From Candidatus Kapaibacterium sp. (GTDB taxonomy: Bacteria; Bacteroidota; Ignavibacteria; Palsa-1295), in NCBI GenBank assembly GCA_046590195.1, contig JBKJTP010000084.1, positions 1 to 56,169 on the forward strand: 56,169 nt of DNA, in the 5' to 3' direction. Both the position numbers and the translations under genes were made by a program. Under the pieces are notes generated by a model. That model was not told the origin of the DNA, did no database searches, and saw only the letters and a program-made list of their open reading frames with translations. Below, one piece after another: positions 10,111 to 53,802 of the stretch (position 1 is the stretch's first letter; each line of letters begins with the position of its first letter).

Positions 10111-11112
10111 ATGGCTAAGAAAAACCCACGCCTAAAGAAATCCGGGACTGTAGAAGAATACACCCCGGAAATGATTGCTGAAATCCGCAAGTGCAAACTT
10201 GACCCGGCGTATTTCGCACGCAATTACGTCATGATTAAGCATGCCAAGCGAGGCAAGATTAAGTTCGCTCTCTATCCGTATCAGGAAGAGATGCTTCAGA
10301 TGTACAAGGACAATCGCTACAACATCATCTTGTCCGCTCGCCAGACCGGTAAGACCGAAACCACCTGTGCCTTCCTACTGTGGTTCGCTATCTTCCATTC
10401 CGACAAGACCATCCTTGTCGTATCCAACAAGTCCTCCAACGCCAAGGAAATGATTGGTAAGATTCAGTATGCCTACGAAGAGCTACCGAACTGGCTGAAG
10501 CCGGGTATCGACGCCGATAGCTGGAACAAGCACGAGTGCAAGTTCGAAAACAAGTCCCGCATCATCGCTCAGGGTACATCTACAGACTCTGGTCGTGGTC
10601 TATCCATCTCTCTACTATACTGCGACGAATTCGCATTCGTCCGGCCGCACATTCAGGCCGAGTTCTGGGACTCCATCTCTCCTACACTGGCGACCGGTGG
10701 TGCGTGTATCATTTCCTCTACGCCGAACGGTGACAGTAACCTGTTCGCTGAACTATGGCGTAAGGCAACGCTGGGCGGGCTGTCTGAAGATGATGCGCCG
10801 TTCAAGTCCAAGCACGTTCCATGGGATGCTCCGCCGGGCCGTGACGAGAAGTTCAAGCGTCAGCAGATTGCCATCCTTGGTGAGCGTAAGTGGCGTCAGG
10901 AGTACGAGTGTGTAACCGGTGACACTATCGTCACGGTTAGGAACAAGGAAACTGGTGAAATAGAGAATCTTGCTATCGCTGAACTTAAGATGCGAATTCT
11001 TATAAATAATCTCCATGAATCGGAGAATATAGTATGTCATGTGTCTACAAACTCACCAGAGCAGATGGTCTTGAATATATCGGGATTACGGTCAATCTGT
11101 CGAAAAGATTGA
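10111..11112 (+). CDS. terL: terminase large subunit, N-terminal ATPase fragment (N-extein, 266 aa) fused to a short N-intein and a read-through tail
   Basis: Walker A SARQTGKTE, Walker B LLYCDEFAF, coupling motif SSTPNG. At Cys267 (nt 10909) the sequence switches to the intein block A pattern CVTGDTIVTV. Confidence 0.85.
   Translation: MAKKNPRLKKSGTVEEYTPEMIAEIRKCKLDPAYFARNYVMIKHAKRGKIKFALYPYQEEMLQMYKDNRYNIILSARQTGKTETTCAFLLWFAIFHSDKTILVVSNKSSNAKEMIGKIQYAYEELPNWLKPGIDADSWNKHECKFENKSRIIAQGTSTDSGRGLSISLLYCDEFAFVRPHIQAEFWDSISPTLATGGACIISSTPNGDSNLFAELWRKATLGGLSEDDAPFKSKHVPWDAPPGRDEKFKRQQIAILGERKWRQEYECVTGDTIVTVRNKETGEIENLAIAELKMRILINNLHESENIVCHVSTNSPEQMVLNISGLRSICRKD
10909..10989 (+). other. 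N-intein fragment (~27 aa, block A only)
   Basis: CVTGDTIVTVRNKETGEIENLAIAELK. Block B (TxxH) is absent here and appears in the downstream ORF. Confidence 0.6.
11001..11008 (+). promoter_or_regulatory. exact T4 late-promoter consensus TATAAATA upstream of the GIY-YIG gene
   Basis: TATAAATA at 11001-11008, followed by the short hairpin TCTCC/GGAGA that contains the SD, then ATG at 11034. Confidence 0.5.
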
Positions 11113-11675
11113 GTGGGCATCGGCGATCAAGACGATTCGCCGATTACCAAATTACTAATGTTGAAATACTATTCACCGGGACGTATGACGAGTGTGATGC
11201 ACTAGAAGAAGGCTACATTACGCAATACGACACCTTTTACAAGGGGTTGAATATGACCAACCGTGGGAAGGGTCGTAATCTTTCGAGCAAGTTCAATACC
11301 TTCGGATACAAATTTAGTGAGAGTAGTCGCAAGAAAATGTCCGAGAAGTCAAAAGCTAGAACAGATCGAAAGACGGGACACAAACATAGTGATGAGGTCA
11401 AGAGACATTGGAGTGATATCAGGCGCGGGAAGGTCTGGGGTCCAATTAAGGTAGACGTTCAGACCCTACTATCTCAATGGGGTGAGTTCGCCCCATCGTT
11501 AGCTGATATGGAGTCCATGGTGGTCTACCGAGATGATAAGGTGTGGTTTAAGAATGGTAGGGAGTTTTCTTATCCAAAGGGTAAACTATCACTGTTCAAA
11601 AGGTTGAAAAGTGTGGAATACGGTGTAACTCCGGAAGCCATCAAAAGGATAATTGTAGATGAACAGCTTGTATGA
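11034..11675 (+). CDS. GIY-YIG homing endonuclease with NUMOD3-like repeats, lying between the two TerL/intein halves
   Basis: CVYKLTRADGLEYIGIT..LSKRLSGHR, E..YI, NMTNRGKG, then G[YH]K[FH]S[ED]..[KR]K.. repeats. A different frame from both TerL fragments; overlaps their ends by 79 and 17 nt. Confidence 0.85.
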   Translation: MSCVYKLTRADGLEYIGITVNLSKRLSGHRRSRRFADYQITNVEILFTGTYDECDALEEGYITQYDTFYKGLNMTNRGKGRNLSSKFNTFGYKFSESSRKKMSEKSKARTDRKTGHKHSDEVKRHWSDIRRGKVWGPIKVDVQTLLSQWGEFAPSLADMESMVVYRDDKVWFKNGREFSYPKGKLSLFKRLKSVEYGVTPEAIKRIIVDEQLV

Positions 11676-11970
11676 AATTCTGACCGAAAATGGTTTTAGA
11701 GACTTTATGACCGTCACTTCAAAGATGACGCCGGGCTACTGTGTCATCACTCTTACCGATGGTGTTGTGGTTAAGTGTACCCAGAGTCACCGATTCAAAG
11801 TAGGGGAGGAATTCGTCGAAGCCCGCGACCTCAAGCTTTCAGACAAGCTGGCACCGACCGGGGTTGGCGTATCGGCCATTGAATACGTTACGGATGAAGT
11901 TGAAGTTTTTGATGTAGTTAATGTAGATGATGGTAATCATTATATCACCAACGGTATAACATCACATAAT
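11659..11970 (+). other. C-intein fragment (104 aa, blocks B, F, G)
   Basis: See the TerL C fragment above. The terminal His-Asn occupies residues 103-104 and Cys is at +1. Confidence 0.7.
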
Positions 11971-12747
11971 TGTGACTTCCTGTCCTCTGACGGTGGCCTC
12001 ATGGATTCTTACGTCATGGGTAGCATCCAAAAGGAAGTCGAGATTATGACTCCTACATTCGTCATTGAGGATGAGGGCGAATTGTACAAATTCTACGCCA
12101 AGATTAATCCGCTATCTACCTACATCATCGGCATAGACCCGGCGACCGGTTCCGGTGTGGATTACAGTGTAATACAATGCTTTGAATTCCCGTCGATGAA
12201 TCAGGTCTTCGAGTATCGTAGTAACGTAATGCGACCGGAAAGTATCTACAAGGTCGTAAAAAAACTAATAGCCTTCATTTCCCAGACCGGTGCGGTGGTA
12301 TACTTCTCGGCTGAGAACAACGGTGTCGGCCAGTCCATTATTTCATTGTACCTGTCCGACGAAACGCCAGCCCCGGCAACCTTCGTATCCGAGGACGGTA
12401 AGGACAAGTACGGCTTCTTCACCAGTCCTCGAAGCAAGATTCGATGCTGTGTCAAGATGAAGAACATGATTGAGAACCGGACCATTAAGCTATCCTCCGA
12501 AACCATGGTCAAGGAGCTAAAGAGCTATGTCCGTAAGGCCGGCTCGTATTGCGCTCAGATTGGTGCTACCGACGACTGCATTGCGGCCTTCCTAATTGTT
12601 ATACGCATCATCGAAGAGATTGCGACGTATGACGAAAAGGCGTACCATATGATGTATCAGTTCGAAGAGCCGGGAGCATGGAAGGATGAGGGTCATCCGG
12701 AGCCGGATTACGGCTACACTATTCCAGTTGAAGCGATGCGCGGATAA
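11659..12747 (+). CDS. terL: terminase large subunit, C-terminal nuclease fragment (C-extein, 258 aa) preceded by a 104-aa C-intein
   Basis: Intein block B LTDGVVVKCTQSHRF, block F VEVFDVVNVDDGNHYITNG, block G ITSHN followed by the +1 Cys (TGT at 11971). The extein then continues CDFLSSDGG... with the RNaseH-like nuclease pattern IIGIDPATGSG. Confidence 0.85.
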   Translation: MNSLYEILTENGFRDFMTVTSKMTPGYCVITLTDGVVVKCTQSHRFKVGEEFVEARDLKLSDKLAPTGVGVSAIEYVTDEVEVFDVVNVDDGNHYITNGITSHNCDFLSSDGGLMDSYVMGSIQKEVEIMTPTFVIEDEGELYKFYAKINPLSTYIIGIDPATGSGVDYSVIQCFEFPSMNQVFEYRSNVMRPESIYKVVKKLIAFISQTGAVVYFSAENNGVGQSIISLYLSDETPAPATFVSEDGKDKYGFFTSPRSKIRCCVKMKNMIENRTIKLSSETMVKELKSYVRKAGSYCAQIGATDDCIAAFLIVIRIIEEIATYDEKAYHMMYQFEEPGAWKDEGHPEPDYGYTIPVEAMRG

Positions 12748-31450: not shown

Positions 31451-32086
31451 ATGCCTATCTCGACCGTCTCCGGCTCTCAGGGGCAGGGTAAATCCACTGT
31501 CCTGAATACCCTCTCGTCAATGTGCTATAGTGTTGTCGAGCGTAAGACTTCGCGCTCCATCCTCAGCGAATGGGGCTTTACATTGAACGAAGTAAACAAG
31601 TACCCACCACTCACCGCCCGCTTCCAAGATGAAGTGCTACGTCGTCATCTGGAAAGCATGCGTCCGCTTATTGACGATGACAACTTCCATTTCATGGAGC
31701 GTTCGTTCTCGGATATCTTCACCTACGCGGTCATGGCGATTGGCTCGTTCAACGAGTACAACGACTGGATGGAAGACTATTATCACAAGTGCATCGAAGC
31801 TCAGTCCTACTTCCACAAGGTATTCCACCTCACCGGCCGTACATTCGTTCCTGAAGAGGATGGTGTCCGTTCCACAAGTCGCTTCTTCGGTCCTGTTGTT
31901 GACCGTGAGATTGCTGATTGCTTGAAGCGTATGGATGTTGCCGTTGGTAAGGGTCAACTTATCACTATCGGCGTCCCGGACAATGAGGAACGTGTGCAAG
32001 CTATCCTGCGCCACAGTGTCGGCACTGAACGCGTAGTGGGATGTCACCCTGATATTGTTCTTCCGGCGTGGGACAATGGCTGTTAA
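31451..32086 (+). CDS. P-loop kinase, AAA_28 / NadR ribosylnicotinamide-kinase-like (tentative)
   Basis: Walker A GSQGQGKST. VERKTSR after the P-loop, FMERSFSDIFTYA (NadR FIDTDFVTTQAF) and PEEDGVRS (NadR WVADGLRS) parallel the remembered NadR kinase domain. Confidence 0.35.
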   Translation: MPISTVSGSQGQGKSTVLNTLSSMCYSVVERKTSRSILSEWGFTLNEVNKYPPLTARFQDEVLRRHLESMRPLIDDDNFHFMERSFSDIFTYAVMAIGSFNEYNDWMEDYYHKCIEAQSYFHKVFHLTGRTFVPEEDGVRSTSRFFGPVVDREIADCLKRMDVAVGKGQLITIGVPDNEERVQAILRHSVGTERVVGCHPDIVLPAWDNGC

Positions 32087-35460: not shown

Positions 35461-35490
35461 TTGACATGTAAAGCGCCGGGGGCCTACAAT
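35461..35490 (+). promoter_or_regulatory. sigma70-type (early) promoter
   Basis: TTGACA (35461-35466), 18-nt spacer, TACAAT (35485-35490). Confidence 0.55.
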
Positions 35491-35512
35491 GTCCCCTTCT
35501 CTGTGGAGGCGT

Positions 35513-35695
35513 ATGGAAGACGTGTATATTTGTTTATGTAATGCAGTGCGACAGTCAGATATTGAACGCGCTATTGACAAAGGGGTGACAACTCTTGCAG
35601 GATTAGAAGAAGTCCTCGAAGTGAACATCAACTGTGGCTGCTGTGAACAGGAAGTCATCCAAATCCTCAAAATCAAGACGCAAGGTGATGTCTAG
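35513..35695 (+). CDS. BFD-like [2Fe-2S]-binding domain protein (bacterioferritin-associated ferredoxin-like)
   Basis: MEDVYICLCNAV....I..AI..G.TTL..L......NCGCC matches the Bfd pattern MYVCLCNGV....I.......l......G..CGKC. The start is moved to ATG 35513 because 35489 lies inside the -10 element. Confidence 0.65.
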   Translation: MEDVYICLCNAVRQSDIERAIDKGVTTLAGLEEVLEVNINCGCCEQEVIQILKIKTQGDV

Positions 35696-35965
35696 TCCAT
35701 CATACGAAGGTCACGAGTACACTTTACAGAGCCAATCGGACAAGCTGCGTCGATTGGCGGTGTACCATGCCTACTGGCGACCCAAGAGAACAAGAAGATT
35801 CCGGGTTGGACCTATGATGTGTCGTTTCACTGGGAAGCTGCCACTGATCTGCTCGCGATGGCTAACCTGCACGATAGTCGTAATGAGTTCATCCCGGAAC
35901 TGGTCAAGAAATACTTGCGACTCTTGAAAGCGTCACCGCTAAATAGAGATATGGAGAAGGCTTGA
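35688..35965 (+). pseudogene. disrupted small ORF: the N-part is in one frame (ATG 35688) and the C-part in the frame that continues from the Bfd TAG stop
   Basis: Frame from 35688: MSSPSYEGHEYTLQSQSDKLRRLAVYHAYWRP looks protein-like, then degrades into R/C/W-rich text. Frame ending at TGA 35963-35965: QENKKIPGWTYDVSFHWEAATDLLAMANLHDSRNEFIPELVKKYLRLLKASPLNRDMEKA looks protein-like. Adding one C to the CCC run at 35781-35783 joins them. Confidence 0.35.
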
Positions 35966-35990
35966 CAGGGGTTCCCTAAAGTCGTATCCT
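35962..35990 (+). promoter_or_regulatory. sigma70-type (early) promoter for the NAD salvage genes
   Basis: TTGACA (35962-35967), 17-nt spacer, TATCCT (35985-35990). SD TAAGGAG precedes the ATG at 36018. Confidence 0.5.
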
Positions 35991-36017
35991 ACTAACGTCA
36001 CTAAGGAGCTTAGGACT

Positions 36018-37088
36018 ATGAAGAACACAGTTACCGTCTATATTGGGCGCTTCCAGCCTCCGCATCGCGGCCACATTCTCACGGCCAGCCATGCCCTCGA
36101 CCATGCCAATCGTGTCATCGTTGTCATCGGGTCGCATAACTCCCCTCGCACCATCGTTAACCCGTGGACCGCTGCTGAACGCGAAGACATGTTCCGTGCC
36201 GCTTTGTCGCCGGAGCATAACCAGCGCATCGAATTCGTCTATGCCGAGAATCGGCTCTACAGCAATGCCATGTGGGCTCGCAACGTAGAGCGTCAGGTCA
36301 ACGAGGTCATTGCTAGCTTCAACTTCATCAAGCCAACCATTTCCATCATTGGCAACGGTAAGGGTGACCCTGACACGGACAGCTACATCAACATGTTCAA
36401 GCAGTGGAAGCGCCTCCCGGCCAAATGTATTCGCATCAGCGACACCCCGCTCAATGCTACTAAGCTCCGAGAACTCATGTTCACCGGATATACCGGGCTG
36501 CTTGAGGGTCCGATTTCTGGCGGAGCGTTCAATCTTATCAAGGTGTTTACCCAGACACCTGAATTTGCCGCATTGAAGACCGAATACGACGATGGTATTG
36601 CATACGAAAAAATGTATGCCAACGTTCCGTACAACAACATGAACTTTTACACGGTGGACTCGGTTGTCATCCAATCGGGTCATGTGCTGTTGGTGCAGCG
36701 CGGTCATACGCCGGGTAAAGGGTTGTGGGCATTACCGGGTGGTCATGTTAACCAGAACGAGACATCGGCACAGGCGTCGATTCGTGAGCTTTATGAGGAA
36801 ACCGGCATCAAAGTTCCCCGTAAGGTGTTGGAAGGTAGCCTATTCTGTGAGAAGTTGTTTGACCATCCAGACCGCTCGCTTCGCGCCCGTATCACCAAGA
36901 AGAATGCCCGCACCGTAACTGTTGTATTCGGGTACAAGCTTGATGATGCCGCAGAACTCCCGAAGGTTGTCGGTAGTGATGATGCCACAAAAGCATATTT
37001 CTTCACCTTTAATGAAATTTTGAATATGAGAGATTCCATGTTCGAGGACCATTTTGATATTTTGGAATATTTTATCACCAGAGTATAA
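36018..37088 (+). CDS. natV: bifunctional NMN adenylyltransferase / Nudix hydrolase (NatV/NadM-like)
   Basis: Nucleotidyltransferase motif GRFQPPHRGH. C-terminal Nudix box GGHVNQNETSAQASIRELYEETGI (Gx5Ex7REUxEExGU). Confidence 0.85.
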   Translation: MKNTVTVYIGRFQPPHRGHILTASHALDHANRVIVVIGSHNSPRTIVNPWTAAEREDMFRAALSPEHNQRIEFVYAENRLYSNAMWARNVERQVNEVIASFNFIKPTISIIGNGKGDPDTDSYINMFKQWKRLPAKCIRISDTPLNATKLRELMFTGYTGLLEGPISGGAFNLIKVFTQTPEFAALKTEYDDGIAYEKMYANVPYNNMNFYTVDSVVIQSGHVLLVQRGHTPGKGLWALPGGHVNQNETSAQASIRELYEETGIKVPRKVLEGSLFCEKLFDHPDRSLRARITKKNARTVTVVFGYKLDDAAELPKVVGSDDATKAYFFTFNEILNMRDSMFEDHFDILEYFITRV

Positions 37089-37125
37089 ATACCTACAATC
37101 AAAGTCGTGATGACGGAGTGTAGGT
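37084..37125 (+). promoter_or_regulatory. TATAAATA late-promoter consensus abutting a 7-bp hairpin that spans the SD-to-start region of the endonuclease gene
   Basis: TATAAATA at 37084-37091. ACCTACA (37091-37097) pairs with TGTAGGT (37119-37125). GGAG at 37115-37118, ATG at 37127. Confidence 0.5.
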
Positions 37126-37126
37126 A

Positions 37127-38044
37127 ATGCGAAATAAATGGACTACCGAACTAATGCTAATAGAGATTAGAAAGAGATTAGGCGATAGTATACGAGTTCC
37201 GAAAGACTTTAAGTATGAAGGAATTGATACTTTAGCAACATTTATATGTGAAGTACATGGGGAATTCCAAAAATCCTGTTATAGTTTACTTAAAAGCAAA
37301 ACTCCATGCCACTGGTGTGCCCCCAACCACAAAAGGACTTGGGCGGAGATTGAAGAGAAGATGGAGCTTATACACGGTAAAAAATACGATTATTCCTTAT
37401 GTCAGAAAACGTACATGCCTAAGTATAAGCTTAGCATTATATGCCCGGAACATGGAGTGTTCAAACAATCCGCTGCCGAGCATCTAACGGGCGCTGGTTG
37501 TAGAGTGTGTTACGAGGACAAGAATAGATTATCAATCAATACATTTCTAAAAAATAGTATTGAATTACATGGTGAAAATTACGATTATCAAAAAGTTTTT
37601 GAAACGTTTAGAAATGGTAGGTCGAAGGTAGAAATAATTTGTAAGAGACATGGAGTATTTACACAAAAGGCCACCGACCACTGTAGGGGTGTAGGATGTC
37701 CGTCTTGTCGTTCATCTAAAGGGGAACAACAAATTGAAAGATTTTTGAAAGCTACTCTTATTGATTTCATAAAACAGAAGACGTTCCCAGATTTAAGGTC
37801 ACTACGAGGGGGTTATCTAAAGTATGATTTCTTTATACCATCTCTTAATTGCTTAATAGAGTACGATGGTGTCCAGCATTTTAATGAAATAGGCCATTTT
37901 GACCACCAAAGAACAAAGGAATCTGATTTACTGAAAGATGAATATGCTAAGCTGAATAAAATCTTACTAATAAGAATACGTTATAACGAAGATGTGAACC
38001 AAAAATTAGAAGCTCTTATTTCATCATTGACAACTACACCGTAA
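37127..38044 (+). CDS. free-standing homing-endonuclease-like protein: three Zn-ribbon DNA-binding repeats plus a Vsr/PD-(D/E)xK (EDxHD-type) nuclease domain
   Basis: Repeats [IL]HGx[KN]YDY....C..HG.F.Q.....H..G.GC..C. C-terminus YDFFIPSLNCLIEYDGVQHF...HFD. Strongly AT-rich relative to the flanking natV and nadV. Confidence 0.65.
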   Translation: MRNKWTTELMLIEIRKRLGDSIRVPKDFKYEGIDTLATFICEVHGEFQKSCYSLLKSKTPCHWCAPNHKRTWAEIEEKMELIHGKKYDYSLCQKTYMPKYKLSIICPEHGVFKQSAAEHLTGAGCRVCYEDKNRLSINTFLKNSIELHGENYDYQKVFETFRNGRSKVEIICKRHGVFTQKATDHCRGVGCPSCRSSKGEQQIERFLKATLIDFIKQKTFPDLRSLRGGYLKYDFFIPSLNCLIEYDGVQHFNEIGHFDHQRTKESDLLKDEYAKLNKILLIRIRYNEDVNQKLEALISSLTTTP

Positions 38045-38078
38045 AGATATACAATAATAACAACATCAACAACGACAC

Positions 38079-39521
38079 ATGGGAGACATGGTCATGAATA
38101 ACCAGAATATCAGAAGCAAAGACCTACTTAAGAACGTCTGCATTAATTCAGATTCCTACAAGCAGGGGCACTTCAAGTTCATGAAGGCTGGCACCACGTC
38201 CGTATTCATCTACGGCGGACCTCGTACAGGCGCAAAATTCAAGGATGTCGTGCCCTTCGGACTTCAAATTTACACCAAGAACTTCCTTCGTCGCCGGGTG
38301 ACCCGGAAGATGATTGAACAAGCGGCAGTCTTCATGACATGCCACGGCTTACCCTTCAATCGCGAAGGCTGGGAGTACATTCTCGAAAAGCACAACGGCT
38401 ATCTCCCGCTCCGCATCAAGGCAGTTGAAGAAGGCACCATCGTGCCAGAAGGCAACGTTCTGTTTACAGTCGAGAACACTGACGCAAACTGTGCATGGGC
38501 CACCAACTTCATCGAAACGCAAATTCTTCGAGCCGCATGGTACGGAACCACAGTCGCCACCCTGAGCCGCGAGTTCAAGCGAATCATCAAGAAGTACCTT
38601 GACCTGTCTGGTGACGCTTCCGGCCAGAGCTTCAAGCTGGTGGACTTCGGTGCCCGTGGCGTTTCGTCCTTCGAGAGTGCCTACATCGGCGGTGCAGCCC
38701 ATCTGGTCAACTTCATGACCACGGACAACCTCGTCGGTATCGCTGCGTCCATGGAATACTACGGCGTGAAGTACATCACTCCGGAGACCATCACTGGTGT
38801 GAGCATCCCGGCCTCGGAACATGCCGTGACCACTGAGCGTGGTCGTGACGGTGAACTTGAGTTCTTCTCGGACTCCATTGACACCTTCTTGACCGGCCCC
38901 GGTACGATGGTGTCGTTGGTCAGCGACACTTATTCGCTTCGCAACGCTATCAAGCTGTTTGGTGTGGACCTGAAGGATAAAATTATCGCTTCGGGTGGAA
39001 CGGTTGTAGTTCGTCCGGACTCTGGCGACCCGGTCGAGCAGGTACTGTTCACGGTATCCGAGCTTGACAACTACTTTGGTGTCACGGTCAACGAGAAGGG
39101 TTACAAGGTGCTGCATCCATCCGTCCGCGTGATTCAGGGTGATGGTATCAGCATCGACACCATCGAACCCATTCTTGAGGCCCTGACGAACGCAGGGTAC
39201 AGTGCCGACAACCTGACTTTCGGGAGTGGCGGTGGATTGCTGCAAAGCGTAACCCGTGACACCGAACGCTTCGCTCAGAAGGCTTCGCATGTAGTTGTGG
39301 ATGGGGTCGGTAAGAACATCCGCAAGGAATGTGAGACTGACCCAACTAAGGCTTCGCTTGCTGGTCGTCTGGAACTGGTTCGCCGTAACGGTCAGGTGCT
39401 GACCGTCACCGAAGAGGAAGTTCTGGCGACTGACAACAAGCTGTTGAAGGTCATCTATGAGAACGGCAAGCTCAAGAACCCGGTCAAGTTCGAGAAAGTA
39501 CGAGCCAACGCCAGTTTATAA
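38079..39521 (+). CDS. nadV: nicotinamide phosphoribosyltransferase (Nampt/NadV)
   Basis: Length and blocks NSDSYKQGH, DFGARG, PDSGDP, IQGDGI, FGSGGGLLQ are typical of Nampt. The exact start (38079/38088/38094) is uncertain. Confidence 0.85.
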   Translation: MGDMVMNNQNIRSKDLLKNVCINSDSYKQGHFKFMKAGTTSVFIYGGPRTGAKFKDVVPFGLQIYTKNFLRRRVTRKMIEQAAVFMTCHGLPFNREGWEYILEKHNGYLPLRIKAVEEGTIVPEGNVLFTVENTDANCAWATNFIETQILRAAWYGTTVATLSREFKRIIKKYLDLSGDASGQSFKLVDFGARGVSSFESAYIGGAAHLVNFMTTDNLVGIAASMEYYGVKYITPETITGVSIPASEHAVTTERGRDGELEFFSDSIDTFLTGPGTMVSLVSDTYSLRNAIKLFGVDLKDKIIASGGTVVVRPDSGDPVEQVLFTVSELDNYFGVTVNEKGYKVLHPSVRVIQGDGISIDTIEPILEALTNAGYSADNLTFGSGGGLLQSVTRDTERFAQKASHVVVDGVGKNIRKECETDPTKASLAGRLELVRRNGQVLTVTEEEVLATDNKLLKVIYENGKLKNPVKFEKVRANASL

Positions 39522-39524
39522 CCG

Positions 39525-39548
39525 AAAGGGCCGCTCAAGCGGCCCTTT
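39525..39548. terminator. bidirectional terminator hairpin between nadV and the convergent endonuclease remnant
   Basis: AAAGGGCCGC, loop TCAA, GCGGCCCTTT: a 10-bp stem with A/T runs on both sides. Confidence 0.7.
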
Positions 39549-40101
39549 CCTTATGTGATATAGACCAACCTACGGTTTGTGGTAGAAGTGATGAGTGCTT
39601 CGACTTCCTCACGTTCGTAATAGTGTGTGGAATTGGTCCCTTATTGACGTACTTCAGAAGAGAGTAGTAATGTAGCCCCATCTGCTCGCAGAAGTTCTTG
39701 ATGTCATCTTTAAGTATTTCAAATACTATACCTGCTGGCCCACTCACTTCGTATGTTTTGGTCTTGGCCTTGCTCAGCATGCGACGATGTTCTATCGTTT
39801 TTGCTACCCCACGTAGACCAGCACTTATTTTATCGCGATTATCTTGACGCTTGGCGGGGTTCGCATCTCCATATAAAGCAGACTCTCGACACTTCTGTTT
39901 AATCTTTTCAATTGTAGTGTCTGAATGGCGCTTGCCATAGAAATGATTAATGTCACCAACTCTTCGACTCATTCTTTTCGATTGTGCTTTCTTGTTTTCC
40001 TCAGTGTGCTTCTTTCCATAGAAACTATTCTTGTTTCCGCTCACATCGTCACTATGAAATCCGAAGCCCCCAAGTTTTATATTATAAGTATCGTCACGCA
40101 T
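39535..40101 (-). CDS. homing-endonuclease-derived protein retaining NUMOD3-type DNA-binding repeats but lacking the GIY-YIG catalytic N-terminus
   Basis: Starts at ...YNIKLGGFG, which corresponds to the end of a GIY-YIG domain (compare NMTSGGDG in the ORF at 53051-53764). Then NSFYGKKHTEENKK and NHFYGKRHSDTTIEKIK repeats. No GIY or YIG motifs. AT-rich. Confidence 0.55.
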   Translation of the reverse strand: MRDDTYNIKLGGFGFHSDDVSGNKNSFYGKKHTEENKKAQSKRMSRRVGDINHFYGKRHSDTTIEKIKQKCRESALYGDANPAKRQDNRDKISAGLRGVAKTIEHRRMLSKAKTKTYEVSGPAGIVFEILKDDIKNFCEQMGLHYYSLLKYVNKGPIPHTITNVRKSKHSSLLPQTVGWSISHKERAA

Positions 40102-40104
40102 CAA

Positions 40105-40322
40105 CCAGTCGGCGACAACTCCAAGGCGTCCAAGCGTGGCCGTCTGACGCTGGTCCGTGATGCCAAGACTGACAAGTTGGAGACCATGCGTCTGGATGAG
40201 ACGAGTGTGGTAGCAACAAGGAATACGTGGACATGATGGTAACGGTATACGATAATGGCCCGGTCGAAAGTGCTTACGTTACCTTCGACCAAGTGCGTGC
40301 TGAGAGCAACAAGTACTTGTAA
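40105..40322 (+). pseudogene. orphan, frameshifted duplicate of the nadV 3' end
   Basis: DNSKASKRGRLTLVRDAKTDKLETMRLDE.. then, after a 1-nt frame change, SNKEYVDMMVTVYDNGPVESAYVTFDQVRAESNKYL*. This aligns with the nadV end DPTKASLAGRLELVRRNGQVLTVTEEE..TDNKLLKVIYENGKLKNPVKFEKVRANASL*. Confidence 0.6.
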
Positions 40323-40349
40323 CCAACACGTCAATTCTGTAAACTGAAT

Positions 40350-40380
40350 GCCCCGAGTGTAATGCTCGGGGTATTTCTTT
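40350..40380 (+). terminator. intrinsic terminator, presumably the ancestral nadV terminator
   Basis: CCCCGAG (40351-40357), loop TGTAATG, CTCGGGG (40365-40371), then TATTTCTTT. Confidence 0.7.
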
Positions 40381-40414
40381 GTGGCTTAGCCAAGCTCGCT
40401 CCCATTTCTCATAA

Positions 40415-40421
40415 CTAAATA
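40415..40421 (+). promoter_or_regulatory. late-promoter-like CTAAATA upstream of the capsid gene
   Basis: taACTAAATAac, 20 nt before the ATG at 40442. Confidence 0.4.
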
Positions 40422-40441
40422 ACAAAAACAAGGTGAAAATT

Positions 40442-41647
40442 ATGTCTATAATCAAGAAGTTAAAAGAAAAACTCAATCAATGGAAGCTTCAACTCAATGG
40501 TAAGCTAGCCGATCTAGAAACGCTGGTGATGGGAAAGCTGTGGGTAATCGCGAAGTTAGAGAAGCTGTATGGTGCGATTCGAACCCTGCTAGACAAGCAC
40601 GCGCATGCTAGACGCGTTCGTCTTATTGACGAATTGATAGCCTCATCGAATCTGTATAATGCTCATCCCGTAGCTGTCAAGACTATAGCTATGAATGTTC
40701 TAGTAGACCAGCCTTCCGATCCCTCTAGCAGCGTTAAGACTGAACTACTAATTGCGATTACCATTCGTACCGCAATTACAGTGTTGAATGAAGTCGGGGC
40801 CATAGCCGGCGTCCAGCCGATGCAGTCACCAATCGGTAAGGTCTATTCGATGGAATATCTTGATGCGGCTACACGAGAGACACTTTCGGATGCCGAACTC
40901 TGTCCTGAACCGTTGGACTTGAATTCTCCTAATCCGCTTCCGCGTAAGTTTTCACTAGCAATCATCTCTAAGGCCATAGAATCTCATACCAAAAGGCTAC
41001 AGGTGTCGTGGACATTTGGACTGCGCGACCTGAAAGCTTTCCACGGCTTAGATATTGAAGCCGAAATTGCTAAAGCAATTGTCTCCGAAATCTCATATGA
41101 AATACTAAGCAATGTGCTTCATGAAATAGTGGCTACCTCGCCTCATGTTGAATTGTCTTTCGCATTGGAAAGTCCCCTCCCCGCTAGTCAGAGATTGTCT
41201 ATCAATTTGACAATGCTAGCCAGTGATATAGCACGCACTACGCGACGCGGTTCTGGTAATTTCATCGTTTGCTCTCCCCTTGTCGTCTCTCTTCTACAGG
41301 CATGCCCTGAGTCTGTATTCTCGCCGGCAATCGAGGGTTCCTTCAAGGGTCCGAACAACTTTACTTATGCTGGCATATTGAACGGAGTCATTAGGGTTTA
41401 CTGCTATATCTGGGAAGGAAATAATGGTGCCGGCACTGATAGAATTCTAATGGGTTATAAGGGTGGAAACGGTGAAACTGACGCCGGATACATTTTTGCC
41501 CCGTATGTATTGATATCCCCTTCCGGTGTCGTCGTCAACCCGGTCACGTTCCAGCCGCAACAGCAACTCATGACACGCTCCGGAAGTCTATTCCACGGTA
41601 AGAACTACTACCGCGTTCTGGACCTAAAAGACTTGGAATTCTGTTAA
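40442..41647 (+). CDS. T4 gp23/gp24-family capsid protein (major capsid or vertex protein; lacks the gp23 insertion domain)
   Basis: Blocks vs remembered T4 gp23: LNQWKLQLNG/LNKWKPLLEG; IAGVQPMQSPIGKVYSM/ICGVQPMNSPTGQVFAL; LRDLKAFHGLDIEAEI/AQDLRAVHGMDADAEL; RRGSGNFIVCSP/GRGEGNFIIASR; GYKGGNGETDAGYIFAPYV...FQPQQQLMTRSG/GYKGPNEMDAGIYYAPYV...FQPVMGFKTRYG. I prefer the ATG at 40442 to the GTG at 40433. Confidence 0.85.
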   Translation: MSIIKKLKEKLNQWKLQLNGKLADLETLVMGKLWVIAKLEKLYGAIRTLLDKHAHARRVRLIDELIASSNLYNAHPVAVKTIAMNVLVDQPSDPSSSVKTELLIAITIRTAITVLNEVGAIAGVQPMQSPIGKVYSMEYLDAATRETLSDAELCPEPLDLNSPNPLPRKFSLAIISKAIESHTKRLQVSWTFGLRDLKAFHGLDIEAEIAKAIVSEISYEILSNVLHEIVATSPHVELSFALESPLPASQRLSINLTMLASDIARTTRRGSGNFIVCSPLVVSLLQACPESVFSPAIEGSFKGPNNFTYAGILNGVIRVYCYIWEGNNGAGTDRILMGYKGGNGETDAGYIFAPYVLISPSGVVVNPVTFQPQQQLMTRSGSLFHGKNYYRVLDLKDLEFC

Positions 41648-41965: not shown

Positions 41966-42706
41966 ATGGCAACCTATACCATAACAACGGCTGCCAACAA
42001 AAAGCATCTTCATAAGAGAATGTGCGTATATCTCATTCGACACAAGATATCAAACAAGATTTATGTAGGACAAACTATCCAGCAGTTGGGTCGGCGTTGG
42101 CGGGCACACTTGAGTGTGGCAAGTGGAGCAGGACGTAGTGCAATAAAAGCAGCCATTGCAAAATATGGCGCAGACGCGTTCGAGTTCCAATTTCTTTGTC
42201 AGGTAGAAACTCAAAACCAGTTAGACGCGAAAGAAATTCATTGGATTGCCAAGTTAGATACACTGTCACCCAACGGTTACAATCTCAATACCGGTGGAGG
42301 GGGAGGTAAGAAACATTCCGAACTAACTATCAAGCGAATGAAGTGCGCTGCTAAAGCACGATTTGACAGAGAAGGTAGAACAGTAATACCCGAAACAGAA
42401 GCTCAGTTGGCGATACGCCGAGTCAAGTGGGCAGAGGCTAGCAGAAAACGTGCTTTAGGTAACACCTACAGAAGAGGTCAGAAATCTTCTGAGGAAACGT
42501 GTAGAAAAATCACCAAGGCAAAAACAGGTGTGCTGATTCCTGCTAGATGGAAGCCTATCGTGTCATCTGACGGTAAGGTATACAAAAGCGTAGGTCATGC
42601 GGCAACTGCCATAGGATGTAATAAATCAACTTTGATGCGACATCTAAACGGCAGCTTAAAATCTGTGTATAAAAAAACCTATTCCTATTACAGAAGTGTT
42701 GACTGA
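41966..42706 (+). CDS. GIY-YIG homing endonuclease (Seg/I-TevI-like) with NUMOD3-type repeats
   Basis: CVYLIRHKISNKIYVGQT..LGRRWRAH, E..WI, NGYNLNTGGGGG, KKHSELTIKRMK, C-terminal HTH-like GCNKSTLMRHLNG. Confidence 0.85.
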   Translation: MATYTITTAANKKHLHKRMCVYLIRHKISNKIYVGQTIQQLGRRWRAHLSVASGAGRSAIKAAIAKYGADAFEFQFLCQVETQNQLDAKEIHWIAKLDTLSPNGYNLNTGGGGGKKHSELTIKRMKCAAKARFDREGRTVIPETEAQLAIRRVKWAEASRKRALGNTYRRGQKSSEETCRKITKAKTGVLIPARWKPIVSSDGKVYKSVGHAATAIGCNKSTLMRHLNGSLKSVYKKTYSYYRSVD

Positions 42707-52434: not shown

Positions 52435-53067
52435 ATGCTAATCAACAAAGAGAACCCATCCGAAATCACCCAAGGCTTCCCGCCAATCCTCGCACTCAAT
52501 GCGGCTGGTGAGGCTGTCGAATGGCTGACTTACGAAGACGCTGCCTGCTACCACGCCAAGGGTAAGATTCTTTGGTCGGTCGGCTCGCACGAGATGAACA
52601 TCCGTGGCGGTACGAATGCTAAGACGGGTCTGCCGACTGTCGTTCGTATCGAGACCATTGTTGCCATCGCCAACGACAAGAGCCCGACACGCTACCACGC
52701 TCGCGACCCGCGTCTGTCCAACAAGACGCTGTTCGAGCGCGACCGTAACCTGTGCGCCTACTGCGGTGAGACGTTCAAGCACAAGGCACTGACGCGCGAC
52801 CACGTTCTGCCGACCTCTAAGGGCGGTAAGGACTCGTGGGCAAACGTGGTCACGGCTTGCGCCGGATGCAACCAGTGGAAGTCCGACCGTACCCCGGAAC
52901 AGGCAGAGATGCCGCTCCTGTACGTTCCGTACACGCCGTCGTACAACGAGAAGCTCATTCTCGACAACCGTAGGATACTTTTTGACCAAATGGAGTTCCT
53001 TATCAAGGGTGTCTCGCCACACAGTCGTGTGTACAAAGAATACATGCGTACTAAGGAAGCGGCCTAG
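52435..53067 (+). CDS. HNH endonuclease
   Basis: CAYCGE......DHVLPTSKGGKDSWANVVTACAGCNQWKSD (CxxC...H..N...CxxC..N..K). Confidence 0.8.
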   Translation: MLINKENPSEITQGFPPILALNAAGEAVEWLTYEDAACYHAKGKILWSVGSHEMNIRGGTNAKTGLPTVVRIETIVAIANDKSPTRYHARDPRLSNKTLFERDRNLCAYCGETFKHKALTRDHVLPTSKGGKDSWANVVTACAGCNQWKSDRTPEQAEMPLLYVPYTPSYNEKLILDNRRILFDQMEFLIKGVSPHSRVYKEYMRTKEAA

Positions 53068-53764
53068 GTAGTAATTGGAAACCCTTATTACTACCAGATG
53101 ATATCGGCTTCTTCCTAATAAAGCTCCCGTACAGTGAATGGTACGGGAGCTTTTCTTTTTCGCAGAACGCCTTTAGATGGTCGATGTCTGCTGTACTCCC
53201 GTCAGGATATACGACCGTCCATTTGTGACCTCTGAAATCAGAGCCGCCCGGCCCCCGAACTGCTCGCATTCTCTCCTTGGTCGAGTCGGAATGCTTGAGC
53301 TTCTTACTGTTCTCACTTAATCGTCGCTTGACCTCATCAGAATGGGTCTTCCCATACATCGGATTCTTTTCTCCCGGAAGGCCGGAGCGTTTTCTTAGTT
53401 CATCGCATATGGTGTATCCGTCACCCCCGGATGTCATGTTACAAAGAGGCCCGCGCTTAAGTTCGGGAATGCACCATTTCGTGCCTATCCGTTCGATCCA
53501 TTCCTTTTCCAATACCATTGCGGCTTCTTCGTCCATATTACTCTCTAGGAAGACGATTTTAGGCACGAACCCCGCATCTACGATTCTTTGTATTTTACCC
53601 TTCTTCAATGAATTATTAGTTCGATGATTTGGGTCTAAATGGCACCACGCCCGCCTTCCCTTACCCTTTCCAATATAGAATGGTTGATGGTCTAGCCTAT
53701 GCCCGTCTTCGGTGGTATACTCTTCTCTTCTCGGGTCGAGATATGCGTACACGTAATATTCCAT
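53051..53764 (-). CDS. GIY-YIG homing endonuclease with NUMOD3-like repeats
   Basis: YVYAYLDP....PFYIGKGKGRR..H, E.EWI, NMTSGGDG, NPMYGKTHSDEVKRRLSE. I prefer the start at ATG 53764 (SD GGAG) over the listed TTG at 53779. Converges on and overlaps the HNH gene by 17 nt. Confidence 0.8.
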   Translation of the reverse strand: MEYYVYAYLDPRREEYTTEDGHRLDHQPFYIGKGKGRRAWCHLDPNHRTNNSLKKGKIQRIVDAGFVPKIVFLESNMDEEAAMVLEKEWIERIGTKWCIPELKRGPLCNMTSGGDGYTICDELRKRSGLPGEKNPMYGKTHSDEVKRRLSENSKKLKHSDSTKERMRAVRGPGGSDFRGHKWTVVYPDGSTADIDHLKAFCEKEKLPYHSLYGSFIRKKPISSGSNKGFQLLPRPLP

Positions 53765-53778
53765 TGAAAACTCCATCA

Positions 53779-53802
53779 AGTCGATACTGTATTTATTCGA
53801 CT
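53779..53802 (-). promoter_or_regulatory. 6-bp hairpin with ATAAATA in the loop (minus strand) upstream of the GIY-YIG gene
   Basis: The minus strand reads AGTCGA-ATAAATACAGTA-TCGACT, immediately before the start region. Confidence 0.4.

Follow-up and report, generated by a model that had tools for sequence, protein, structure and literature searches.

Contig JBKJTP010000084.1, whose complete 56,169 bp as deposited at NCBI form the window analysed here, contains a region that is likely to be a NARP2-type locus for the reconstitution of nicotinamide adenine dinucleotide (NAD+) in an uncultured T4-like phage. Two plus-strand genes, natV and nadV, would encode the enzymes that lead from nicotinamide to NAD+, and a free-standing homing-endonuclease-like gene, which we call HEG1, occupies the spacer between them. 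The NARP2 kit is already known, and the window is an ordinary further example that provides no new mechanism of NAD+ reconstitution; what is notable here is that a mobile endonuclease gene resides inside the kit and that the kit genes have been swapped between related phages.

A predicted NAD+ pathway in an uncultured T4-like phage

The natV gene (36018–37088) specifies a protein of 356 aa that we take to be bifunctional, with an intact N-terminal nicotinamide mononucleotide (NMN) adenylyltransferase (NMNAT) of the NadM type fused to a C-terminal Nudix hydrolase. Its two Pfam domains, CTP_transf_like (residues 7–66) and NUDIX (residues 212–350), both score above gathering thresholds, and the two motifs cited in the initial annotation could each be located: GRFQPPHRGH, i.e., the HxGH motif (residues 10–19, nt 36045–36074), and a perfect Nudix box, G-x5-E-x7-REUxEExGU (residues 242–264, nt 36741–36809). 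A second NMNAT motif, NATKLR (residues 146–151, nt 36453–36470), aligns to SSTAIR of the Synechocystis enzyme and to NATEFR of the Francisella enzyme, and the matches to these two NadM-Nudix proteins in PDB (2qjo from Synechocystis, 5e-65; 2qjt from Francisella, 9e-47) are collinear over 350 residues. NatV is also homologous over its full length to NatV of Vibrio phage KVP40 (33% identity, E = 1e-61), which combines an NMNAT with a Nudix-like module (PMC13464706). Another KVP40 protein, KVP40.0211 (“nadR”), was tried as the counterpart of NatV and rejected, since the HxGH motif alone aligns; the true natV of KVP40 is KVP40.0162. Against the NCBIfam model PRK05379 the best score of NatV is 287.8 bits, where the cut-off is 397, and all seven sub-models fall below their own cut-offs, yet the E-value of about 1e-85 denotes homology. 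We therefore regard NatV as a divergent phage member of the family and not as an equivalog by the NCBI rule.

Downstream, nadV ends at 39521, as initially annotated, but its start is probably at 38094 and not at 38079, where the open reading frame (ORF) merely opens, because a Shine-Dalgarno (SD) sequence, GGGAGA, lies at 38081–38086, the homologous start is found in relatives, and the NCBI gene call is of 475 aa. The suggestion that the product resembles nicotinamide phosphoribosyltransferase (Nampt) is borne out by its Pfam domains (NAMPT_N and NAPRTase), by a score of 526 bits against NCBIfam NF006629 (cut-off 405), and by matches at 8e-112 and 1e-108 to NAMPT structures, those of human and Xanthomonas; PHROG 448 matches it at 6e-144. 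Of the residues that matter in NAMPT, His247 is autophosphorylated, Asp219 is responsible for nicotinamide specificity, and Phe193 and Tyr18 provide stacking, while Arg196, Arg311, Asp313, Gly353-Asp354, Gly383-Gly384 and Arg392 are further catalytic or substrate residues. When NadV is aligned to human NAMPT (chain 4o18, native numbering), D16, Y18, F193, R196, D219, E246, H247, R311, D313, G353, D354, G383, G384 and R392 are conserved, and the gene appears to encode a complete Nampt in which no catalytic residue is missing. With NadV of KVP40 it shares 42% identity (E = 5e-103).

The phage thus encodes both a Nampt homolog of the KVP40 NadV clade and an Nmnat homolog, with natV 1 kb upstream of nadV. 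A domain resembling Prs or Adps was found neither in the window ORFs that were scanned (a part of the total) nor in the precomputed Pfam annotation of the neighbourhoods of relatives. Gene content, architecture, catalytic motifs and full-length homology to KVP40 together uphold the identification of the two genes as a NARP2-type pair, and the KVP40 and NARP2 literature is as the initial annotation had given it (Osterman et al., bioRxiv 10.1101/2024.02.11.579819; PMC13464706). According to that work, the KVP40 Nampt makes NMN from phosphoribosyl pyrophosphate (PRPP) and does not make NAD+ from ADP-ribose pyrophosphate (ADPR-PP); the expressed KVP40 pair overcomes Thoeris, DSR1/2, SIR2-HerA and SEFIR; an Nmnat is also encoded by 94% of phages with the KVP40-type Nampt clade; and, as its starting compound is PRPP, NARP2 produces NAD+ in excess in defence-free cells too (10.1101/2024.02.11.579819). 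The gene pair is common among phages: homologs of NadV occur in 2018 phage records and homologs of NatV in 477.

By homology to these enzymes, NadV would join nicotinamide to PRPP to yield NMN, and the N-terminal domain of NatV would adenylate NMN with ATP to form NAD+. The second domain of NatV, Nudix, most likely cleaves ADP-ribose into AMP and ribose-5-phosphate, the latter of which host PRPP synthetase could recycle to PRPP. Nicotinamide and ADP-ribose, both of them products of immune NADases, would thus be returned to NAD+, and it is from this homology that we infer a counter-defence function for natV and nadV.

As to the bearer of the pathway, the window includes genes for a gp41-type helicase, UvsX, UvsW, a gp32-like protein, a T4-type terminase and a Gp23-family capsid protein. 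It is part of the genome of a T4-like phage that has not been cultured, from a previously unsampled lineage represented in metagenomes only, and at about 56 kb it is probably about a quarter of a full genome of about 200 kb. Among 50,697 phage records there was no nucleotide-level match for the window, and hence no close cultured relative, and the best matches of its proteins to those of cultured phages are all below 50% identity. Metagenomic relatives (L081, L082, L085, L086, L087 and L088) were reached through homologs of a P-loop protein encoded upstream of natV and through exact-protein look-ups; one of them, L086, stops inside natV and is informative only up to that gene. The order common to the relatives is an AAA_28 kinase-like gene, an RNase_T exonuclease gene, several small ORFs, a gene for a BFD-like 2Fe-2S protein, natV, a variable insert, and nadV. 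A Gp23-family gene comes after nadV in L082 and L088, and its counterpart in L081 was matched by tblastn.

Expression signals of natV and nadV

Because each gene has a conserved sigma70-type promoter of its own, natV and nadV appear to be two independent early-type promoter-gene units and not one operon. The natV promoter (TTGACA-17-TATCCT, 35962–35990) and its SD sequence (AAGGAG, 36003–36008, 9 nt before the ATG at 36018) are those to which the initial annotation had drawn attention, and both are real, the promoter being conserved in relatives; what does not hold is that this single promoter serves both genes, as nadV is preceded by TTGACA-17-TACAAT (38027–38055), in the spacer of which lies the stop codon of HEG1 (38042–38044). 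In L081, L082 and L088 the natV promoter takes the form TTGACG/TTGACA-17-TATCCT/TACCAT, and both promoters are kept in place in these three relatives; L085 and L087 keep them in part, the nadV promoter being conserved in L087. On the plus strand of the window the strict pattern TTGACA-N16-18-TAnnnT is found six times, and on the minus strand never (dinucleotide shuffles, 0.77 ± 0.81); every one of the six sites, of which the nadV promoter is one, is situated just 5′ of an ORF start. Since each gene has a host-type sigma70 promoter, an SD sequence and a conserved leader, unmodified host RNA polymerase could transcribe both from the start of infection.

A T4-type late-promoter-like motif, CTAAATA, stands 5′ of the natV −35 hexamer (35939–35945), in the same position as in L081, L082 and L088. 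The window contains seven copies of this motif, all on the plus strand and mostly 18–35 nt before ORF starts, and it is possible that natV is expressed late as well as early. On the 3′ side of nadV is a GC-rich hairpin (39524–39549, plus strand; folding dG −22.4 kcal/mol, z = −5.3), to which a homologous hairpin followed by a T-run corresponds in L088; this is a probable intrinsic terminator and possibly a bidirectional one.

The nadV leader, ...cgacacatgggagacatggtcATGaat, is identical in L081 (37/37) and near-identical in L082 and in L095, a contig of 2.5 kb, although the nadV genes of all three belong to another allele class (see below), that of L081 being only 45% identical in protein. In this phage group the natV leader (35991–36020) and the nadV leader (38056–38096) have a common pattern, ...GGGAG-N-CA-N-GGTC-ATG-AA..., and the conserved leader might serve in translational control, mark a recombination junction or be the target of the endonuclease.

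A mobile gene between natV and nadV

The two genes had initially been described as separated and flanked by homing-endonuclease genes. One intact gene of this kind does separate them, but the downstream flank has only a remnant that contains NUMOD3 and lacks a catalytic domain, and upstream of natV we found nothing endonuclease-like. The intact gene, HEG1 (37127–38044, plus strand, 305 aa), matches, at 4e-55 to 9e-12, PHROG 559, 681, 9084 and 7140, which are families of endonucleases or homing endonucleases. Pfam returns a sub-threshold DUF5889 alone (DUF723 in the precomputed annotation), such that its nuclease domain is not recognised by Pfam, and a PDB sequence search gave no match; by eye, the C-terminus (…IEYDGVQHF…) looks like a putative Vsr/EDxHD-type PD-(D/E)xK nuclease. 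Its GC content is 35.9%, against 48.7% for the window and 51–54% for natV and nadV.

A copy of the T4 late-promoter consensus, TATAAATA, overlaps the natV stop codon (37084–37091, plus strand) and is 36 nt before the HEG1 ATG, where it would act as a promoter. There are six copies of this sequence in the window, all on the plus strand, and that at 11001 precedes a GIY-YIG endonuclease gene. At its other end, the HEG1 ORF terminates in the spacer of the nadV promoter, neither hexamer of which is disrupted. We consider HEG1 to be a self-contained mobile gene, with its own late-type promoter, ribosome-binding site and foreign base composition; its endonuclease activity is predicted, as is its target.

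The spacer differs among relatives in what it holds: 66 bp and no insert in L081, 59 bp and no insert in L088, a 102-aa ORF in L082, an unrelated I-TevI-like gene in L085, and eight small ORFs in L087. The decisive case is the contig L095, which has a HEG1 copy that is 98% identical in protein; its DNA is 97.8% identical to the window over 37110–38102, a stretch that takes in HEG1 together with the promoter, leader and first codons of nadV. The nadV of L095, however, is only 45% identical to that of the window and 72% identical to the L081/L082 type. The presence of a near-identical HEG1 beside a divergent nadV therefore shows that HEG1 has recently reached this one site in phages of differing genetic background. 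HEG1 has entered a short natV-nadV spacer as a mobile gene, at a locus whose natV and nadV alleles are exchanged among related phages.

Replacement of natV and nadV alleles

The genes of the locus differ in which phages they unite. For the P-loop and exonuclease proteins, the window pairs with L081 (71% and 84% identity) and L082 with L088 (80% and 82%). For NatV, on the other hand, L081, L082 and L088 cluster at 72–78% and the window is the outlier at 57–65%. NadV unites the window with L088, at 90% identity, and L081, L082 and L087 form a second class (58–70%). At 43–49% identity, the two NadV classes are as distant from each other as each is from KVP40 NadV (41–45%). The window and L088 are thus 90% identical in NadV and 29–74% in neighbouring proteins, whereas the window NadV is 45–49% identical to those of L081 and L082, to which the window is closer for the P-loop and exonuclease proteins (L081) or for NatV (L082). 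In a DNA comparison between the window and L088, nadV is uniformly about 80% identical over 38055–39590 and natV about 63%. Because the identities are incongruent across genes, alleles at this fixed locus appear to have been replaced repeatedly, with two deeply divergent nadV classes occurring at the same site. The variable spacer inserts in relatives, the HEG1 copy in L095 and the two nadV classes at one locus all favour the earlier proposal that the cassette is a hot spot for exchange.

It is plausible that HEG1 caused the exchange of natV and nadV. A more specific version of this idea, which we put forward only tentatively and judge rather doubtful, is that HEG1 is active and has its target in the conserved nadV promoter and leader, such that, when it homes during co-infection and co-converts the DNA on either side, alleles of natV and nadV (both nadV classes included) are reshuffled among related T4-like phages. 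Were this so, a selfish element would be both spreading and diversifying an anti-defence pathway, and selection by Nampt-targeting hosts might explain why two nadV classes exist side by side. A literature search found nothing relevant that links homing endonucleases to phage Nampt genes.

Alternative explanations

Several points weigh against a NARP2-type counter-defence locus. For this phage the enzyme activities and the counter-defence benefit are predicted from homology; the early timing is predicted from promoter motifs, and a late-type CTAAATA also precedes natV. NatV scores under the strict NCBIfam equivalog cut-offs (PRK05379 models; 288 bits vs. 354–449). With only about 56 kb of some 200 kb in the window, further NAD+ genes or an Adps partner may lie outside it, and the host may or may not carry NADase-based defences. 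Moreover, the pair was first interpreted as a means of general NAD+ scavenging for replication. An explanation of that kind, in which the pair raises NAD+ in any host for the needs of the phage itself (redox reactions, NAD+-consuming phage enzymes, nucleotide metabolism) and did not evolve under selection for counter-defence, would accord with the overproduction of NAD+ by NARP2 when no defence system is present (10.1101/2024.02.11.579819), and with the position of natV and nadV among early genes of the nucleotide-metabolism type and behind promoters of the same kind as those of the gp32-like gene and of the kinase/exonuclease operon; in KVP40, the Sir2, NadR-like and PnuC genes likewise suggest a broader pyridine-nucleotide programme. 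We nevertheless hold it to be unlikely as a full account, because the KVP40 pair lets phages escape several NADase defences (10.1101/2024.02.11.579819), although a metabolic and a counter-defence role are compatible and are not separable by sequence analysis. Far less credible still is that NadV is a Namat of the NARP1 type, which would use nicotinamide and ADPR-PP, in place of a PRPP-using Nampt. The two enzymes are homologous, and both are among the 2018 phage records that match NadV, but NadV resembles bona fide NAMPTs (1e-108 to 1e-112) much more closely than it does the remoter PDB entries; the KVP40 Nampt, with which it shares 42% identity, makes no NAD+ from ADPR-PP; NadV comes together with an Nmnat, which is what marks the Nampt clade; and no Prs/Adps-like gene was present among the ORFs scanned.

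A different question is whether the NARP2-type pair is joined by a third entry point. The initial annotation had tentatively called the product of a plus-strand gene at 31451–32086 NadR-kinase-like; as a nicotinamide riboside kinase, it would feed NMN to NatV and make the locus a hybrid of NARP2 and NARP3. The best Pfam match of this P-loop protein is AAA_28 (1.9e-10; 41.7 bits vs. a cut-off of 27), a family that contains the NadR kinase domain, with dNK second at 2e-3. NadR structures (8x7f, 6gyf) are among its fold matches, its gene is 4–10 kb 5′ of natV in all six relatives of the lineage, a homolog adjoins an ADP-ribosylglycohydrolase gene in one jumbo-phage contig, and KVP40 shows that NARP2 genes can coexist with a NadR/PnuC route. 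Yet in Foldseek searches with a confident AlphaFold model (predicted local distance difference test score, 87.7), thymidylate kinases, deoxynucleoside kinases and NadR are equally weak matches (E about 1e-5 to 1e-4, TM 0.5–0.67), those to the other kinases being as good as or better than those to NadR. PDB sequence and profile searches gave P-loop-level matches only, with NadR absent from the profile matches, and in hhalign the P-loop alone aligned to the KVP40 NadR-like protein, at 13% probability. All 26 homologs examined match AAA_28, but 21 of the 26 also match dNK. The partner gene, moreover, is one for an RNase_T (DEDD) exonuclease and not PnuC or NMNAT: it comes directly after the P-loop gene in six of eight relatives and 1–5 kb downstream in the other two, L083 and L084. 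The family is large, with 340 representatives (E ≤ 1e-10), most of them stand-alone and about 190 aa long; RNase H is fused to one, and a likely intein interrupts another. There is no PnuC in the window, and this P-loop gene was within 10 kb of NadV in none of 80 unrelated NadV loci. As none of these comparisons pointed specifically to nicotinamide riboside, the NadR-like call is not sustained and a three-entry module is improbable; the AAA_28 gene appears to encode a nucleoside- or nucleotide-kinase-like enzyme, for which a role in nucleic-acid salvage is more likely than one in the use of nicotinamide riboside.

Some members of this kinase-like family have features of their own. In the homologs P0082 and P0093, the profile match falls into two stretches with a long insert after the P-loop, and since the insert of P0082 has a LAGLIDADG domain, it is likely to be an intein. 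L083 and L084 are jumbo-phage contigs of about 292 kb, in which the neighbours of the AAA_28 gene differ from those in the lineage of the window: in L083 (10001–11622), the gene adjoins that for the ADP-ribosylglycohydrolase, and in L084 (10001–18410), it is near genes for GTP cyclohydrolase I/PTPS, an Acb2/Tad1-hairpin protein, a phosphoribosyltransferase and a NADAR-domain protein. The functions represented around the gene in these contigs have to do with ADP-ribose and with anti-defence.

Relation to known systems

The NARP2 system of KVP40 (NadV, KVP40.0264; NatV, KVP40.0162) consists of the same two enzymes, with NAMPT_N plus NAPRTase and NMNAT plus Nudix, and both phages are T4-like myoviruses. 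However, natV and nadV are 43 kb apart in KVP40, which therefore offers no precedent for a cassette, whereas in the lineage of the window they form a conserved locus, natV then nadV, with separate promoters. The locus in the window is also interrupted by a homing-endonuclease gene, and the NadR-like, PnuC and Sir2 genes of KVP40 were not seen in the 56-kb window. NARP3 (PnuC plus a NadR-like protein with ribosylnicotinamide kinase (RNK) and NMNAT domains; PMC13464706) is similar in being a phage route for rebuilding NAD+ that ends in an NMNAT step, but the window is without PnuC and without an RNK domain fused to NMNAT, and its AAA_28 protein is not tied to nicotinamide riboside.

Among bacterial proteins, the NadM-Nudix enzymes of Synechocystis (slr0787; 2qjo) and Francisella (perhaps FTT0601; 2qjt/2r5w) are collinear with NatV, which shares with them the HxGH motif, the (S/N)xTxxR motif and a Nudix box. 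NatV differs in being a phage copy that is beneath the NCBIfam equivalog cut-offs, and the substrate preference of its Nudix domain is a prediction. The best cultured-phage matches for both NatV and NadV (40–49% identity) are from Xanthomonas phages LucasX, RTH11 and XacN1 and roseophage MD18, in which natV and nadV are adjacent or within a few kb of each other; these belong to other phage lineages, with none above 50% identity and no nucleotide-level match. More generally, the nearest cultured-phage NadV homologs (XacN1, LucasX, RTH11, MD18 and RAS14) are in genomes that also have NatV, often adjoining.

Scanning IMG/VR with NadV produced 80 loci, with identity at or below 49% throughout. The arrangement in which natV is directly 5′ of nadV (as in L005, L013, L014, L022 and L035) is frequent in these distant loci. 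In nine others (L058, L061, L062, L066, L067, L068, L071, L075 and L080), the NadV match ends near query residue 250 or 320, or splits, and these broken matches suggest that nadV is interrupted or split elsewhere, by an intron, an intein or an endonuclease insertion.

T4-type phages have free-standing homing endonuclease genes, such as seg and mob, one of which (mobE) is situated between nrd genes of Aeromonas phage Aeh1. HEG1 is like these in its intergenic position between conserved genes, its late-type promoter, its low GC content, its presence/absence polymorphism and its mosaic flanks. It is unlike them in that neither Pfam nor a PDB sequence search picks out its nuclease domain, and in that the flanking cargo is a predicted anti-defence pathway.

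The window extends NARP2 to a T4-like phage lineage known from metagenomes, in which the genes are at a stable and separately promoted locus and are not scattered as in KVP40. It also supplies a concrete case from nature in which a mobile endonuclease gene and the replacement of alleles have reshaped a putative counter-defence locus, and so bears on how anti-defence genes spread between phages.

Other features of the window

The downstream remnant, HEG2 (39535–40104, minus strand, TTG start), encodes 189 aa and derives from a homing endonuclease of the GIY-YIG type. It matches NUMOD3 (1.3e-8), PHROG 314 (2.7e-13) and, below cut-off, TIGR01453; its match to a GIY-YIG endonuclease is weak and begins near residue 70 of that protein, and a search of all upstream frames found neither a GIY-YIG motif nor a catalytic domain, which argues for a truncated remnant. 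The entire 39522–40432 segment is missing from L088, except for a 13-codon scar.

Besides the two at the NAD+ locus, the window is rich in homing-endonuclease-like genes, with five more at 1342–2160, 11034–11675, 41966–42706, 52435–53067 and 53051–53779 (minus strand), which include one T5orf172, two GIY-YIG, one HNH and one NUMOD-like type. The GIY-YIG gene at 11034–11675 is located between the two halves of a T4-type large terminase gene that is apparently split (10111–12747; ATPase domain, 10111–11112; nuclease domain, 11659–12747). It overlaps both halves and is the gene preceded by the late-promoter consensus at 11001. Rfam detected no group I intron at the split terminase; indeed, Rfam and tRNA scans of the whole window gave no matches at gathering thresholds, with neither an NAD+ riboswitch nor a group I intron near the endonuclease genes.

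Two neighbours of the pathway genes complete the picture of the locus. Just upstream of natV is the gene for the BFD-like [2Fe-2S] protein (35489–35695; Pfam Fer2_BFD, 4.6e-10), which has its own promoter, TTGACA-18-TACAAT (the span of promoter and gene being 35461–35695); a homolog is 5′ of natV in L082, L085, L087 and L088, and on the opposite strand in L086. Just 3′ of nadV is the gene for the Gp23-family capsid-like protein (40442–41647, in an ORF from 40433), which shares only 29–37% identity with the proteins encoded at the corresponding position in L081, L082 and L088, as compared with 40–85% for other proteins common to the relatives. At 404 aa this protein is short for a major capsid protein; perhaps it is a paralog of the gp24 type, or else an allele that has been replaced.

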